This document shows positions 46,010 through 52,505 of a stretch of 64,000 nucleotides of DNA, piece by piece. Each line of letters starts with the position of its first letter. Position 1 is the first letter of the stretch. Position numbers and translations under genes: made by a program. The notes under the pieces were generated by a model, which did no database searches, was not told the origin of the DNA, and saw only the letters and a list, made by a program, of their open reading frames with translations. The DNA lies in IMG/VR virus record IMGVR_UViG_3300012157_000001, positions 96,001-160,000 of that record. One strand, written 5' to 3'. This DNA is from a virus (lineage: Duplodnaviria; Caudoviricetes).

Positions 46010-48667
46010 CTAACCGACGTCCGGAGTTGCCCAGTCGAACAGCGCCGGATCCAACTCAACCTCCGGGTTCGCCTGCATGCTCTCCGTCAGCTGTGCGAAC
46101 ATGTCACGCACCACGACATCCTGCGCCTCGTCCTCGTCCAGATCGGTACCGTCGATGACCTCCGCAGCAGTTGCAGTTTTTTCAGCTAGCAACGCGGCGA
46201 GCTTGTCATCGATCGTGTTCGCGCCGTCGTAGTACGTGATCACGCATTGGTTCTTCTGGCCGTAGCGGTGAATCCGGTCCTCGGCTTGCACCAGATCGAA
46301 TGGGCGCCACACGCGCTCGAAGATGAACATGTCCTGCGCTCGCGTCAGCGTCAGCCCGACCCCTGCTGCTGTGATCGAGCACACGAGCGCGTCGAGATAC
46401 TTCCGCTTCTCCGGCGGTCGGTTGAGGGGCAATCCGCTCTGGAATTCATCGATCGCTTTTTCGCGCGCGCGGCCCGTCACCTTGCCGGTGATCATGCCGA
46501 TGCGGAAACCGAGGTGCTCTAGCCCGGCTTCGATTGCGCTCAGCGCTTCGTCGTGATGCCCCATGATGATCAGCGGCCTGCCAGTGTCACGCAGGAACGC
46601 CGCCGACTCCGCGAGCACCGTATCGACCTTGCCGATTCCGGTGATCCGCCGCAGCGCCGTCAGCCGCGCAATGACCTCGGCTCTTGCGGCACGCATTGCT
46701 GCCGCTGGTCCGCCACGCCGACGTACCCATGCCAAAAACTCTGCCGCTGCTTGCCGATATTCGGTGGCGGCTTCCTCGGAGAGACCAATGGATCGGTACT
46801 CGCGAACCTTCTCGGGCAGGTTCAGAACTTCCTTGGTCCGTCGGAAGAGGTAATGCCCGCTCGTGCGCTCGCGAAGCTCACCGAGGTTCGCGTGGCCATG
46901 CACGTTCAACATTGTTTTGCCGCCGGGGATGTGCACCTCCTGCGGATCGCAGTAGCGCCACCAGTACTCTTCCTGATTTGCCCAATCCTTCGGGGCCACC
47001 ATGTTGAGAAGCGGGAATAGCTCGTACGGGCGCCCGTTGATCATCGGCGTGCCGGTCAAAAAGAACCGCCGCGGGATGATTTGCGAGAGCCGGTAGAGCG
47101 CCGCTGCTCGCTTCGGATCTTTCCCGGGATAGTGGCCGCCTTTTTCGTTCTCATAGACGCGGAGCTCCTTCACTGCCTGCGCCTCGTCCACGATGAGCGT
47201 GGCAAACCGACGGCGCTTCAGCTTGTCGAGCACCTCCGCATCCGACGCGGCCTCGTATCCGATGATGACACAGCTCGCCTTCAGCGCCTCGTCGGTTAGC
47301 TCGGCCGCCTTTTCTATTTTCGCGACGACCAGGTCGGGGCGCCACTTCATCGCTTCGCGCCGCCAGTTCTCACGGAGAGACGCGGGCACGACCACCAGCA
47401 CGGGCGCATCCATCGCCGCGAGCGCGGTCGGCGTCTTGCCGGTGCCCTGCTCCATGGCGAGGACGCCGCTGCCCTTGTCGTTGAGCCAGAGGACTCCTTC
47501 TCGCTGCCACGGCTGCAGACCCTCTGGAATGTCGCGTTTCGCCGCGGCCGGCGCCACACGCTCGCCTGTCGCCTCCTCGATTGCCTCTTTCTCCGCCTCG
47601 GTCGGTAGCTTCAGCTTCACCTCTTTGAGGCCGCAGAACCCGGCGTTGTACTTCTTGAAGAAGAGATAACCGAAACGCTCCATGCTGAGCTCGGCATCTT
47701 GGAGCGTCATCAAGCCGATCCACTGGCCCTTTGCGTTCGTTCCCGTGCGCGCGACGACCATGCGGCGACCGTCGTGGAGCTCAATCCGGTCACCTTCCTT
47801 GACCTGAATGGCCGCCGCGGGCGCTGGTTCGTCCACGGTGGTGGGCGCGCCCGCCGCCTGTCCCTCTGGCGCGGGGACGGGGAGCGCCGTGTGCGGCACC
47901 ATGAACGTCTCGCCGCTCGGCATAACGCCCAGGGTGCCGGCCAGCGTGTCCACGAGCGAATTCAAGACGAGCAGCCACTGCCGCTCCGTCGCTGGGAATA
48001 CGTCGTGCCACTTGCCGCGCCCGTCCTTGTACGTGATCACGCCCGCGGCCTTCATCGCGTTCTTCGTCTGCCGCCACGTGTCGCCCTGAATGAACGGCAG
48101 CATGACCTCCCAACCCGCCTGACCCGTGCGCGACGGCTCGCCCTCCCGCACGACGATGCCCTTGGGCTTCCCGTGCTCGATCGCGTTGCCCTCTTCGTCG
48201 TACTTCCACCCCTCGATGAACACGCGCTGCAGCGCATGCGCAGTACCGGCATAGCCGAGCGCGGTCGCGAGCTCCATCGCGCTGCCGATGTAGTGGCTAG
48301 CGTCGGACTGCTGGCGCTCCCAGGCGCTGCCGGCGGCATGTATCGCTGCGCTCACCGCAGCGCGCGAATCCATCATACCGCCCTTCGCCTCAATCGATTC
48401 GCGCATCGGCTGCGGCGCCGTCTCGATTGCGGCCTCGTACGCCGCCCGATCGGGACTCGCCGTCTCCGCAAACATCTTGTGCTTCTCGGCGCAGTACGGG
48501 CCGACGCCTCGCTCGATGCTCGCCGGGTCGCGAAGCGGGCGGCCGCAGATGAGGCACGACTTCGCGAGCATGAGCGTGCCTGCTTCGTGCTCGTAACCGT
48601 TCCATGCGTAGTGAGTCGGCCCTTCGTCCTCGGGCTCGTAGTCGTACGGCTGCATGACCTGGGCCAT
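46010..48667 (-). CDS. SNF2-family (SMARCAL1/HARP-like) helicase with N-terminal DUF6011-like Zn finger
   Basis: CLICGRPLRDPASIERGVGPYC; LQPWQREGV, AMEQGTGKT, VVVPASL..NW..E, IVDEAQ, LTGTP, GVGLTLT, QAEDRIHRYGQ. Confidence 0.9.
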   Translation of the reverse strand: MAQVMQPYDYEPEDEGPTHYAWNGYEHEAGTLMLAKSCLICGRPLRDPASIERGVGPYCAEKHKMFAETASPDRAAYEAAIETAPQPMRESIEAKGGMMDSRAAVSAAIHAAGSAWERQQSDASHYIGSAMELATALGYAGTAHALQRVFIEGWKYDEEGNAIEHGKPKGIVVREGEPSRTGQAGWEVMLPFIQGDTWRQTKNAMKAAGVITYKDGRGKWHDVFPATERQWLLVLNSLVDTLAGTLGVMPSGETFMVPHTALPVPAPEGQAAGAPTTVDEPAPAAAIQVKEGDRIELHDGRRMVVARTGTNAKGQWIGLMTLQDAELSMERFGYLFFKKYNAGFCGLKEVKLKLPTEAEKEAIEEATGERVAPAAAKRDIPEGLQPWQREGVLWLNDKGSGVLAMEQGTGKTPTALAAMDAPVLVVVPASLRENWRREAMKWRPDLVVAKIEKAAELTDEALKASCVIIGYEAASDAEVLDKLKRRRFATLIVDEAQAVKELRVYENEKGGHYPGKDPKRAAALYRLSQIIPRRFFLTGTPMINGRPYELFPLLNMVAPKDWANQEEYWWRYCDPQEVHIPGGKTMLNVHGHANLGELRERTSGHYLFRRTKEVLNLPEKVREYRSIGLSEEAATEYRQAAAEFLAWVRRRGGPAAAMRAARAEVIARLTALRRITGIGKVDTVLAESAAFLRDTGRPLIIMGHHDEALSAIEAGLEHLGFRIGMITGKVTGRAREKAIDEFQSGLPLNRPPEKRKYLDALVCSITAAGVGLTLTRAQDMFIFERVWRPFDLVQAEDRIHRYGQKNQCVITYYDGANTIDDKLAALLAEKTATAAEVIDGTDLDEDEAQDVVVRDMFAQLTESMQANPEVELDPALFDWATPDVG

Positions 48668-48861: not shown

Positions 48862-48936
48862 AACACGCCGAGCGTACAGTGCGGCTGGACGCGCGCGCCA
48901 GTTTTACGTGCCGCGCGCGCATTCGATGCACATATC

Positions 48937-50352
48937 GTCGGATATTGTTTGCCTCTCCGTGGGCGCTTCTCAAGGGGGATCCTCGGAGGCATACGGGCCC
49001 CTCCGCGGGCGCTTTTGACAGCAGTGAAGTCGCCGGGCTCAAAAGGGAGAGGCCCGCCGGAGACACGACGCCTCTCCGTGGGCACTGAGCTCCCTCATCT
49101 TTCTCGGAGCAACGATGCCACTCCGCGGGCGCTCGGGGGCAATTTGTCCATGGTCGGAGTCACAACGCCACTCCGCGGGCACCGAAGGAAACAGAGCGGC
49201 CCGGAGGTACGACGCCTCTCCGTGGGCTTCCGCTGGCCAGTCGGGTGTCGTCGGAGGCACTACGCCGCTCCGCGGGCGCTGATGACGAAGCACTACATCA
49301 CCTCGGAGAGACCTCGCCGCTCCGCCGGCTCTGATCGCGCCCCCATCGGGGAACGTCGCAATGTGGCGCATATGCCCGGAGACACGACGCCTCTCCGCGG
49401 GCGCTGATGGCCCCCAACCGGAGATCCTGAATGAACCCCGCCAACGCCTCGGAGACACGACGCCTCTCCGCGGGCGCTGACGGCTTTCCGAAGACAGGCG
49501 GCTCGTGCGCATGTTGCGGCCCGGAGACACAACGCCCCTCCGCGGGCTCTGACGGGAGCATCCTGCTGGTGAGCGGCGCGCCATCGGGGTGCTCTCGGAG
49601 ACACGACGCCCCTCCGCGGGCTCTGCTGGATCGAATGCGGCGTCTGATGGAGCTCGCATCCTCGTCTCGGAGAGAACGACGCCCCTCCGCGGGCTCTGAC
49701 GGACGTAGTACGGCACGCCGTACACGCTGCTGGAGAAGCCTCGGAGACACGACGCCCCTCCGCGGGCGCTGATGGTCGTTGCGGCGCCGTAGGCCATTGT
49801 GAAGAGCTGGTCTCGGAGACACGACGCCCCTCCGCGGGCTCTGGCGGTCACGAACACGGAACGCTCCTCGACCTCGACGACTCGGAGAAACCACGCCGCT
49901 CCGCCGGCTCTGATCGCCGGGCACGCGCAGAGCGATGTACTCGATTGCCTGGACCTCGGAGAAACCACGCCGCTCCGCCGGCTCTGATCGTTGCTTCCGC
50001 CGTGGCTTTCGACACTTGGGTCGGCTCGGAGACACGACGCCCCTCCGCGGGCGCTGATGGATGCACCGCCGGAAGTTGGATGCGCGGTCACCCTTTGCTC
50101 GGAGACACGACGCCCCTCCGCGGGCTCTGATTGGGCGTAGATCGAGTTCGCCAAGCCCATCAGGGTGACGTCGGAGACACGACGCCCCTCCGCGGGCTCT
50201 GATTGGCGGTCAATGCCGAAGACGGTTCGGTCTGGGCGTGGGTCGGAGACACGACGCCCCTCCGCGGGCTCTGATTGGGAGCTCATCCAATTGTCGACAC
50301 GACCGTCAGGACCGGGTCGGAGACACGACGCCCCTCCGCGGGCTCTGATTGG
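48937..50352 (-). CRISPR. CRISPR array, 22 repeats (36-37 nt). Leader-proximal consensus CCAATCAGAGCCCGCGGAGGGGCGTCGTGTCTCCGAC. 14 spacers of 33-38 nt, then a degenerate tail with mostly 9-16 nt spacers
   Basis: repeat starts (+ coordinates) 50316, 50242, 50170, 50098, 50025, 49955, 49881, 49812, 49740, 49666, 49594, 49520, 49448, 49375, 49302, 49250, 49200, 49153, 49103, 49056, 48982, 48937; CGGAG/CTCCG stem; the identical copies are nearest the cas gene. Confidence 0.95.
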
Positions 50353-50423
50353 GGGCGCCGTAGCGACCCCTTTCGATTCGGGTGCTTGCATTGCATTTTG
50401 CGAGCGGTCCCATGGGCCGCTAC

Positions 50424-52433
50424 TTACTCCGCGGCTGAGACCGTTGGGCCTTCGTCCGTGTTCGCGTTCGTTTCGACGTCGTTTGCGGCATCGCGAGCGG
50501 CTGCCGCCTTTTTCGCGGCACCGGACTGGTCGCGCTCTTTGTAGCGGTCCGGACCGAACGCTGCCTTCAGCGCTGCCTTGAGCTCATGCACGCAGGCGAG
50601 CTGCCGATTGTGTCGTGCCGCCTGGTGGAGCTCGTTCGGCTTGTCCTCGGCCTTGTCCCGAAGCGCGATCTGATCGAGGTCTACCGCGCCGCTCACCTCG
50701 CAGATCTCGAACTGCGTACAAAGCTTCGCCGCGGTCACTCGATAGAAGTCGCGGCGGCGCCCCATTGCGTGGTTGCGCGCACCCGCTGCCATCGCTTCGA
50801 GGTGCTCGTCTTTCCGGCGCCACATCGCGAGCCAGAAGGTGAAAATCGTGTCCGGCGTGGTGAGCCCAAGGATCGCGGCGTACTTGCCGATGTCCGGCTC
50901 GAAGAGATCTTCGTGCGCCGCACGTCGCAGGTCGCGCCAGCGCTTCCACATGGCGTACTCCTCTTCACGCTTGTCGAGTACTTCGAGCATCACAGCCGAG
51001 ACGCGCTTGAGCTTCCAGTGCGCGCGCCACTGCGACAGACCGTGCGCCGCCTCGAACACGCGAGTCGGCTGCGACGCGATCCGCTTGGCGACCTCGGCAC
51101 GCGCGCTGTCGAAGAGGGTGTCGGCGACGCTGCGGAGCCTCTCCGCGAACCGCAGCGATTCGACTACTCCCGCCCGGCGGCCACGCTCGTGCGCGCCGCC
51201 AGGAAGCCGGAGCGGCTCGCCGTTGACGTGCGCGACGATCAGCGTCTTGTTCTCGTTGTCCTGCGTCCAGCAGAGGCGCACGTTCACCGTTCCCGTTCCG
51301 GGCGCGCGCTGAATGAGCGGCTCCGTCGGATCGAGGGTGAACTGCAAGCTGTACTCCCAGCGACCCGGCGACTCCTCGCTCGGAACGAGGTACGCCCACC
51401 GCACCTTGGTATCCGGCGGGATCGGCCGGTGGAGCACGACGTCCATGGTCACCCACCAGTTGCCAGCGGGGCCGTCGTACTTCGGCCGGTAGTAGTCCGG
51501 TGCCGCCGCCAATGCCTCGCGCGTCTCGGCGCGCACGCGCATGTGCACGGTCGCGCGCTGCTTGACGCGGCCGCCGTTCGCGCCGCCTTGGTTGCGCACG
51601 TCCGTGATCCGGAGCTCGTTGTTCTTGCCGGCGAGCAGATCGCCCCACGTGGCGTCGTTGATCTCCCAGCCGATCCGGCGGAGCCGCCTGCGGCTATACG
51701 TCGGTCGCCGCTTCGGACGACGGGGCTCGCCGTCGGGCCGCGGCTTCGGGCGCTTGCATGCCGCCGGCAGGTCTACACGCTGAATTGAGTGGTACGTGCC
51801 AACGGAGAGCAGCCTTGCCTCTTTGATCCAACCACGCAGCGCATCGGCTTGCGTCTCCAGCTGCGCGAGCCGACGCCACGCCTCAGGCCATTGCGCCTCT
51901 GCGAGCATTTCGTCACGCGCCTGAATGTCCGACCGCCGCTTTGCGTGGCGGTCTCCATCATTCGAGCCCCACGCCGAGCGGAGTCGCGCCGACCGCGCCG
52001 TGAACTCTTGCTGCGCCGGCTCCACGACCGCGGCGAACTGGCCACGCATCGGCTTCGCTAGCTCCGCGGCCGCTTTGCGCCAGGCCTTCAGCTCCGTGAT
52101 CAGGTCGACCTCGTCCGATACGTCCACGGCTTTCTTCACCGGCTTCACCGGCCGTCCTGTCGCCGCCGTCGCCTTGCGTCGCTTCTCGCGGATGCCTCCG
52201 CGCTTGCCGCCCTTGCCCGCGTGCTCGCCGATCCACTCGTCGAGCTGCTGGTACGCTTCGTCGATCTCGCCGAGCCCCGGCACGGTCTCCGACCGGATCG
52301 CGGCGAACTGTGAGCGGCGCCACCGCTCGATGGTCACGAGCGACTGATAGTACTGCGCTGCCGCGCGCATCTCCGCAAGCGCGAGCGACTCACCGGTCAG
52401 GAACTTTCGAACACCGAACTTGGCAACGAGCAT
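50424..52433 (-). CDS. cas12m: Cas12m-like (type V-M / V-U1, TnpB-derived) effector, predicted nuclease-dead and lacking the C-terminal Zn finger/RuvC-III
   Basis: 669 aa from ATG 52433 (RBS AAGGAG). Motifs match my recollection of Cas12m: YYQSLVTIER, WVTMDVVLHRPIP..TKVRWAYL, GTVNVRLCW (RuvC-I position), QWRA, W...D.HL.....GAR..A.GRRRDFYR..AAKL, R..A...EL...L. Lies 71 nt from the array. Confidence 0.8.
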   Translation of the reverse strand: MLVAKFGVRKFLTGESLALAEMRAAAQYYQSLVTIERWRRSQFAAIRSETVPGLGEIDEAYQQLDEWIGEHAGKGGKRGGIREKRRKATAATGRPVKPVKKAVDVSDEVDLITELKAWRKAAAELAKPMRGQFAAVVEPAQQEFTARSARLRSAWGSNDGDRHAKRRSDIQARDEMLAEAQWPEAWRRLAQLETQADALRGWIKEARLLSVGTYHSIQRVDLPAACKRPKPRPDGEPRRPKRRPTYSRRRLRRIGWEINDATWGDLLAGKNNELRITDVRNQGGANGGRVKQRATVHMRVRAETREALAAAPDYYRPKYDGPAGNWWVTMDVVLHRPIPPDTKVRWAYLVPSEESPGRWEYSLQFTLDPTEPLIQRAPGTGTVNVRLCWTQDNENKTLIVAHVNGEPLRLPGGAHERGRRAGVVESLRFAERLRSVADTLFDSARAEVAKRIASQPTRVFEAAHGLSQWRAHWKLKRVSAVMLEVLDKREEEYAMWKRWRDLRRAAHEDLFEPDIGKYAAILGLTTPDTIFTFWLAMWRRKDEHLEAMAAGARNHAMGRRRDFYRVTAAKLCTQFEICEVSGAVDLDQIALRDKAEDKPNELHQAARHNRQLACVHELKAALKAAFGPDRYKERDQSGAAKKAAAARDAANDVETNANTDEGPTVSAAE

Positions 52434-52505
52434 GGGACTGGTCTCCTTTGTCTTTGGTTCAAGCAGTCGAGGCGAGCGCTTCGCCCCGCGCTGCCATTGA
52501 CCCAC

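Follow-up and report, generated by a model that had tools for sequence, protein, structure and literature searches.

A gene on the minus strand of the 64,000-nucleotide stretch of DNA analysed here (the window), which comprises bases 96001-160000 of a 179,401-bp IMG/VR virus record (IMGVR_UViG_3300012157_000001; Caudoviricetes) that has direct terminal repeats and is rated complete, probably encodes the effector of a virus-borne type V-M-like CRISPR system, from which the TNB zinc finger and the RuvC-III segment have been excised and which acts as an RNA-guided roadblock on DNA without cutting it. The protein is a distant yet clear relative of the type V-M effector Cas12m, as judged by matches of sequence, profile and fold. 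It is a TNB-less derivative nested among Cas12m-like proteins and not an ordinary member of Cas12m, because its sequence, fold, array, guide RNA and lack of adaptation genes are those of the family but neither the zinc finger of TNB nor the third RuvC motif is present. The gene and the site of the excision are located as follows.

50424..52433, minus strand: effector gene, encoding a TNB-less Cas12m-like protein of 669 amino acids (aa) plus stop (list of open reading frames (ORFs), starts of homologues, gene call P0176)
50538..50555, minus strand: deletion junction, the end of helix alpha2 (AFG) followed by a 3-residue remnant of strand beta5 (RYK) (C-terminal alignment; strand taken from the model)

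The start site is the ATG at 52433 (MLVAKFGV), on which the homologues and the gene caller's product P0176 (669 aa) agree; an alternative in-frame GTG upstream, at 52505, would give a protein of 693 aa (minus-strand ORF 50424..52505), and residues of the effector are numbered here in this 693-aa GTG frame. Pfam and NCBIfam gave no meaningful match to the effector, and PHROGs gave none. The family is identified by the PADLOC profile Cas12u1 (V-U1 is the old name of V-M), which matches the effector with an E-value of 6.4e-28, by a single-sequence search of the PDB, which finds the Cas12m entry 23vw (E 2e-8), and by a profile of 27 homologues, which finds 23vw (1.3e-28), 23vu (4.9e-13) and MmCas12m2 (5e-8) in the same database. 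The AlphaFold2 (AF2) model of the whole protein (pLDDT 76.6) has the Cas12m structures 8hhl and 8pm4 as its best Foldseek matches (E 4e-13), and in a whole-model VIA alignment the Z-scores are 16-17 for Cas12m vs about 11 for Cas12f and TnpB. The bilobed Cas12m fold is present in this model, with a WED domain, coiled-coil REC1/REC2 and an RNase H-like RuvC core that carries a helical insertion, and model residues 1-636 superpose on residues 4-553 of GoCas12m and 4-541 of MmCas12m2. A model of the RuvC domain alone (pLDDT 86.7, pTM 0.79) fits MmCas12m2 305-544 with a root-mean-square deviation of 2.9 Å (Z 12.9), its Z-scores against the Cas12m structures being 12.9-14.2. The assignment to the Cas12m family, which a first-pass annotation made by a model from the letters of the sequence had proposed, is therefore borne out by the PADLOC, PDB and fold matches.

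Several kinds of comparison agree with that annotation that the zinc finger and RuvC-III are missing. The 42 residues that follow G651, the last residue of ELKAALKAAFG, have neither a CxxC nor a D-x-D/N motif. In the effector, the match to the Cas12u1 profile is confined to positions 190-475 of 533, and in two other TNB-less proteins it ends at 472-476; in full-length relatives, it is matched through positions 530-531 of 533. The Pfam profile PF07282 (Cas12f1-like TNB) matches four full-length relatives (two with scores above its curated threshold) and none of four TNB-less proteins, and a six-frame search with this profile found no match in the whole 179-kb virus genome. The structural alignments end at MmCas12m2 541-544, before the zinc ligands H549, C552, C569 and C572 and the RuvC-III residue Asp579 (D579), as these are named in PMC10442227. 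A split gene, or a module encoded elsewhere, was rejected, as tblastn and hidden Markov model searches with the zinc-finger/RuvC-III region of 14 full-length relatives gave chance-level matches only across the whole genome.

The manner of the loss is indicated by an alignment of the C-terminal regions of ten TNB-less and ten full-length relatives. Common to both kinds of protein are the helix ending in AFG, the short strand that follows it and a final tail block, and the only stretch that is missing lies between the short strand and the tail block; it amounts to about 48-57 residues, which in the full-length proteins contain two CxxC pairs and a D-x-D-x-N-A-A helix. As read from this alignment, the zinc finger and the RuvC-III helix are excised internally and not truncated from the end. 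The domain model runs through beta1-beta3, the helical insertion, beta4, a lid-like segment, helix alpha2 and a 3-residue beta5 (262-264 of the model) into disorder, and according to this model the RNase H sheet is probably complete, with the last helix and the zinc finger gone. The earlier view that the whole nuclease C-terminus had been shed is correct insofar as the module is lost, and lost throughout the clade, but it does not hold for the sequence on either side of the excision, where the beta5 remnant and the C-terminal tail are retained.

The same loss is found in a large group of uncultured relatives. A word-indexed search returned 27 homologues of 441-700 aa with 41-94% identity, none of which has the module (0/27), and when 1.84 billion cluster representatives were searched with a profile, 2,633 matched at E <=0.001 and 291 at E <=1e-30. 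A set of 176 sequences (175 database homologues and the window protein) consists of 93 TNB-less and 83 full-length proteins. A FastTree built on the shared region places the window protein in a clade of 64 representatives with a support of 97, all of which are TNB-less; the check on close homologues that the first-pass annotation had proposed is thus answered by 27 of 27 near homologues and by this clade. A second TNB-less group lies elsewhere in the tree, and the TNB label needs at least seven changes, of which four are forced by well-supported branches. It is likely from these sequences that the TNB module was lost more than once independently; the number of losses is uncertain, because the tree is quick and unrooted and the input matches are biased towards the type of the query. 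Virus-borne Cas12m relatives are common in metagenomes, and the 13 related loci from which genomic context was taken are all IMG/VR viral contigs or metagenomes. A scan of 185,579 species genomes for two peptide patterns found no relative, which, with two patterns only, is no proof of absence.

The tail that follows the excision is a feature of both kinds of protein.

50427..50537, minus strand: conserved disordered tail (pLDDT <50), with a degenerate ER-SG ... AAR block, an acidic stretch and a terminal AAE

In the TNB-less and the full-length relatives alike, the tail has the consensus ER-(S)GGD-xx-PG(G/T)(A/S)R, followed by an acidic disordered stretch and a terminal AAE. The block of the effector is degenerate (ERDQSG ... 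AAAAR), and its AAE is retained; 57 of the 93 TNB-less and 30 of the 83 full-length representatives end in AAE. The description of this end as about 40 low-complexity residues is accurate as to the absence of the cysteine and acidic motifs, but it overlooked a conserved motif block. AAE as a virus-wide tag was also considered and rejected, because the effector is the only ORF of at least 60 residues in the 179-kb genome that has this ending. The tail block (window 50427-50552, minus strand) occurs also in P0061, P0097, P0128 and P0143 and at L003:6531-6542.

The catalytic positions and the other conserved segments of the effector are the following.

51267..51293, minus strand: RuvC-I strand GTVNVRLCW, residues 405-413; the Asp position is Arg410 (codon 51276-51278)
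50676..50711, minus strand: RuvC-II strand FEICEVSGAVDL, residues 599-610; the catalytic acid position is S605/G606
50604..50666, minus strand: conserved segment ALRDKAEDKPNELHQAARHNR after strand beta4, the lid region by position (AF2 confidence low)
51426..51431, minus strand: WED His-Arg pair H359-R360 of VLHRPIP (residues 357-363), which aligns with H269-R270 of MmCas12m2

All of the motif strings on which the first-pass annotation relied are found in the minus-strand ORF, VLHRPIP lying just upstream of the range 50424-51320 to which that annotation referred. Replacement of the RuvC-I Asp by Arg is confirmed by residue alignment, in which R410 is placed on the RuvC-I Asp of PDB entries 23vw and 23vu and on His317 of MmCas12m2. 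This column reads R in 25, D in 14, S in 11 and E in 10 of the 93 TNB-less representatives, with A, H, K and Q among the others, and N in 41 and D in 31 of the 83 full-length representatives (72/83 N or D). Loss of the RuvC-II acid is likewise supported, since S605 aligns with the RuvC-II Glu of the full-length relatives and the invariant G606 with Asp485 of MmCas12m2. The residue E603, two positions upstream of S605 in the same strand, is not conserved among close homologues (E/V/I/A/S, alignment A1). In the RuvC-II column, the full-length proteins have E (46) or D (13; together 59/83), and the TNB-less proteins are variable, with D, G, S and many other residues. The catalytic columns are relaxed in the TNB-less proteins, while the full-length ones read D/N and E. 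The RuvC-I change had been taken as a further reduction relative to described Cas12m; the substitution is real, but such substitutions are ordinary in Cas12m, in which the non-canonical RuvC triads HDD, NDD, HQK and NED are usual (PMC10442227; bioRxiv 2026.03.26.714355).

The segment ALRDKAEDKPNELHQAARHNR contains the invariant columns L615, R616, D617, K618, E620, E625, A629, R631, N633 and R634. In the WED domain, R360 is invariant in 25-27 homologues, and the VLHRPIP motif is kept as had been claimed. The role in processing of the CRISPR RNA (crRNA) precursor that had been proposed for its His-Arg pair is weakened, because Omura et al. found that these two residues read the 3′ end of the crRNA (C(-1) together with the G(-23):A(-2) pair) and that pre-crRNA is still processed when they are replaced by Ala (PMC10442227). 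An invariant proline-rich loop, KRPxPRPDGEPRxPxxRP, which is predicted to be disordered, is located at 51702-51755 (minus strand), between the REC lobe and WED; it is limited to the near clade, and more distant TNB-less relatives differ there.

Immediately downstream of the effector gene, on the same strand, are a leader and a CRISPR array.

50352..50423, minus strand: 72-nucleotide (nt) leader from the stop codon to the first repeat (sequence spacing)
49302..50351, minus strand: CRISPR array of 15 repeats of 36 nt and 14 spacers of 33-38 nt (repeat analysis)
49056..49301, minus strand: distal block of five degenerate repeats, 47-52 nt apart, with 11-16-nt spacers

A same-strand array lies about 70-110 nt past the stop codon in all of the TNB-less loci that have downstream sequence (6/6: L002, L004, L005, L006, L008 and the window), and the full-length loci L003, L007, L009 and L011 likewise have a same-strand array. 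The 14 full-length spacers of the window array are unique, and the spacers differ at every related locus. The virus genome has a single copy of the effector gene and two CRISPR arrays. The second array, of the same repeat family, is located outside the window, at G000:C1:31249-32738 on the plus strand, about 113 kb from the effector gene, and has at least 14 copies of the repeat variant GCCGGCGGAGCGGCG...TTTCTCCGA, which is present three times within the window array (49882-49990, 49303-49337). The final repeat base is C (GAC) in the three effector-proximal repeats (50316, 50242 and 50170) and G (GAG) in most of the later, older repeats. Possible further repeat-like remnants are seen past the distal block, at 48928-49013. 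At the locus of a full-length relative (L011:4964-5182), three identical 73-nt repeat-plus-spacer units point to growth by tandem duplication and not by spacer acquisition.

Eleven repeat types of this family fit one H-type pseudoknot, in which a 3-bp stem 1 is interleaved with a 5-bp stem 2 and (G)AC follows. Pairing is present in 98.9% of cells vs 38-48% in slid controls, the observed score was reached by none of 500 shuffles, and the covariation comprises 26 double-change cells, with changes on both sides in six of eight pairs. A fourth base pair of stem 1 (GCCC/GGGC vs GCCG/CGGC) was rejected, as it is broken in other repeats of both arrays. The same H-type topology is that of the MmCas12m2 and PmCas12m crRNAs (PMC10442227; bioRxiv 10.64898/2026.03.26.714355), and because the repeats share a covarying pseudoknot of Cas12m type, the TNB-less proteins appear still to use the guide scaffold of the family. 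A profile search of the complete virus genome for cas1/cas2 gave no match, while the controls did match; the effector and its array form a virus-borne element without adaptation genes, a viral origin that the first-pass annotation had not recognised.

The effector is most likely a pure RNA-guided DNA binder that serves as a roadblock to transcription or replication; the binding-only function suggested in the first-pass annotation is in this respect a reasonable reading. This reading is drawn by analogy, because the tested Cas12m proteins bind without cutting and TldRs bind after the same loss. Every Cas12m tested binds double-stranded DNA flanked by a protospacer-adjacent motif (PAM) and silences it without cleavage, irrespective of the triad (DED, HDD or NDD), and pre-crRNA processing in Cas12m is independent of the RuvC site (PMC11013384; PMC10442227). 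TldRs that lack the zinc-finger (ZnF)/RuvC C-terminus retain RNA-guided DNA binding (bioRxiv 10.1101/2023.11.30.569447). In the mechanism that we propose, the TNB zinc finger and the RuvC-III helix would have been excised from a protein of the Cas12m lineage, and the other two catalytic positions would have drifted afterwards. The effector gene and the downstream array would be transcribed from the same strand, and each 36-nt repeat would then fold into a Cas12m-type pseudoknot ending in GAC, which is probably held by WED, with its His-Arg pair, and by the remaining RuvC core. The guide-target duplex may be clamped by the REC lobe, with its long coiled coil, and by the helical insertion of RuvC, and a stable R-loop formed in this way on PAM-flanked DNA would block transcription or replication of the target. 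No cutting would take place, as neither the catalytic triad nor the strand-loading domain remains. Competing viruses, mobile elements and host genes are possible targets.

Some observations weigh against binding as the sole activity. An engineered PmCas12m without TNB (residues 551-578) has strongly reduced or abolished activity (bioRxiv 10.64898/2026.03.26.714355), and because this deletion cripples PmCas12m, a natural TNB-less protein must be compensated somehow. The conserved AAE tail suggests a partner protein, which could add an activity. Confidence of the model is low in both the lid segment and the tail (pLDDT <50 in each). Finally, the spacers have no self-match and no match in 50,697 phage records, and spacers 1 and 2 have no exact 22-nt match in IMG/VR.

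Among known systems, type V-M Cas12m (MmCas12m2, 8HHL/8HIO; GoCas12m, 8PM4; PmCas12m; 23vw; 23vu) is the closest by sequence, profile and fold. The effector shares with it a WED domain with the His-Arg pair, a coiled-coil REC, a RuvC with a helical insertion, a 36-nt repeat with a pseudoknot ending in GAC, the arrangement of a stand-alone effector and an array with no cas1/cas2 in the genome (no search for a tracrRNA was made), and non-canonical RuvC residues, in a family whose tested members bind and do not cut. It differs in that the TNB zinc finger and the RuvC-III helix, both kept by every characterised Cas12m, are absent and RuvC-II is also lost, in its greater length (669 vs 577-614 aa), and in being encoded by a large virus and serving two arrays. 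Its conserved tail, which ends in AAE, may be a further difference.

Loss of the RuvC acids and of the C-terminal ZnF/RuvC segment is also seen in TldRs (Wiegand et al., bioRxiv 10.1101/2023.11.30.569447), in which RuvC decayed stepwise while RNA-guided DNA binding was retained; many of them are phage-borne, and they act as repressors. Unlike the effector, however, TldRs descend directly from TnpB, use one omega-RNA-like guide and are linked to fliC or oppF, whereas the effector has multi-spacer arrays (15 repeats with 14 distinct spacers, and the second array) and is built on a Cas12m scaffold that includes the REC2 coiled coil. By analogy, the effector would work like a TldR, but its true multi-spacer arrays exclude it from that group. 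Cas12k (type V-K) and Cas12c, which are natural type V effectors too, target DNA and leave it uncut, as we propose for the effector, but both keep the whole RuvC/TNB fold, and Cas12k is paired with Tn7-like transposition proteins. MvCas12m of myxophage MV-1 is likewise a phage effector of Cas12m type beside an array without adaptation genes; it has 610 aa and a reported intact D-E-D triad, in contrast to the effector described here, and the 2026 preprint presents this DED-bearing protein as the first phage Cas12m (bioRxiv 10.64898/2026.09.14.751636). "Gradual inactivation" of the catalytic sites of V-M was described by Altae-Tran et al. (PMC10691335), and no report of a CRISPR-linked Cas12m without TNB and RuvC-III was found in the literature searched.

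The likeness to TldRs raises the possibility that the effector is a hard-wired regulator, whose conserved guides would serve mainly to repress fixed genes of the host or the virus, with the variable spacers in a secondary role. The five degenerate distal repeats with their 11-16-nt spacers and the second array (genome 31.2-32.7 kb) are consistent with this possibility, as TldR guides are 9-16 nt long (bioRxiv 10.1101/2023.11.30.569447). However, the 14 unique full-length spacers, with others at each related locus, resemble an immune memory that turns over, and no target was found for any guide in searches of virus and phage records and, for two spacers, of IMG/VR. We consider a hard-wired regulator unlikely, if somewhat more probable than the other alternatives. 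A wider proposal is that the TNB-less proteins constitute a distinct, mostly virus-borne branch of type V, in which the module was excised at least twice independently and a docking tail was kept, and which would serve either as an address label that delivers the activity of a partner or as a hard-wired programme of host takeover, and not as a simple roadblock; this proposal is speculative and, in our opinion, doubtful.

The conserved tail could also mean that the effector is an RNA-guided recruiter, which would address the target while its tail docks a viral or host partner (a nuclease, helicase, protease or polymerase factor) that acts there. Retention of the tail motif and AAE across the internal deletion, in the proportions given above, agrees with such a role, as do the predicted disorder of the tail, which is typical of docking peptides, and the presence of a gene for an SNF2-type helicase just beyond the window array. 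Yet a partner gene beside the effector was sought and none is common to the window and L002-L005, no other ORF of the virus has the AAE ending, and the same tail is found on full-length relatives with apparently intact N/D-E-D sites, so that it is no replacement for a nuclease. Recruitment is rather improbable.

That the protein is a relic in decay, encoded by an inactivated cas12m that is being lost and has no present function, is very improbable. All three catalytic elements are indeed lost, and the RuvC-I residue differs (R vs H) even between proteins that are 94% identical. On the other hand, dozens of residues are invariant across 27 homologues down to 41% identity, the clade of 64 representatives keeps its architecture, an array is retained at each of the loci examined, compensatory changes are seen in the pseudoknot, and the ORF is intact in a complete genome. 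An assembly or frameshift artefact masking a normal C-terminus, for which no support was found, is refuted, because the same protein end occurs on independent contigs from many samples, the TNB signal is present in no frame of the genome, and with only 72 nt between the stop codon and the first repeat no frameshift can conceal the module.

A large natural radiation of CRISPR-linked Cas12m relatives without the TNB module implies that, given the right context, the module can be dispensed with, and the TNB-less proteins are natural templates for learning what compensates for its loss. The characterised Cas12m proteins retain TNB and all three RuvC segments although none of them cuts DNA. If the effector is a roadblock as proposed, the path on which the nuclease decays and guide binding stays would be extended from the transposon-derived TldRs to CRISPR effectors with multi-spacer arrays, and TNB-less putative binders would be a common cargo of large uncultured viruses. 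Their promise as smaller scaffolds for CRISPR interference, which had been suggested in the first-pass annotation, is weak, because the TNB-less proteins are not shorter than known Cas12m; their median length is 646 aa, vs 577-614 aa for solved Cas12m.

The genes around the effector are phage-like and include those for an SNF2 helicase, RecT and an HNH endonuclease. The SNF2-type helicase (46010-48667, minus strand) has 885 aa with a long N-terminal extension and is encoded by the first large same-strand gene downstream of the array. No transposition genes were found among the scanned neighbours of the effector gene; a TniQ profile had no match in the virus genome, but it had none in any control genome either. 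The gene directly upstream of the full-length, 514-aa effector of L003 (L003:3969-4961) is 48% identical to a gene of the virus (G000:C1:35367-36281) that is close to the second array (about 2.6 kb away) and not to the effector, which hints at a rearranged ancestral locus. On a related 89-kb contig, about 18 tandem copies of a 15-nt unit are found at the contig end (L005:1-285).

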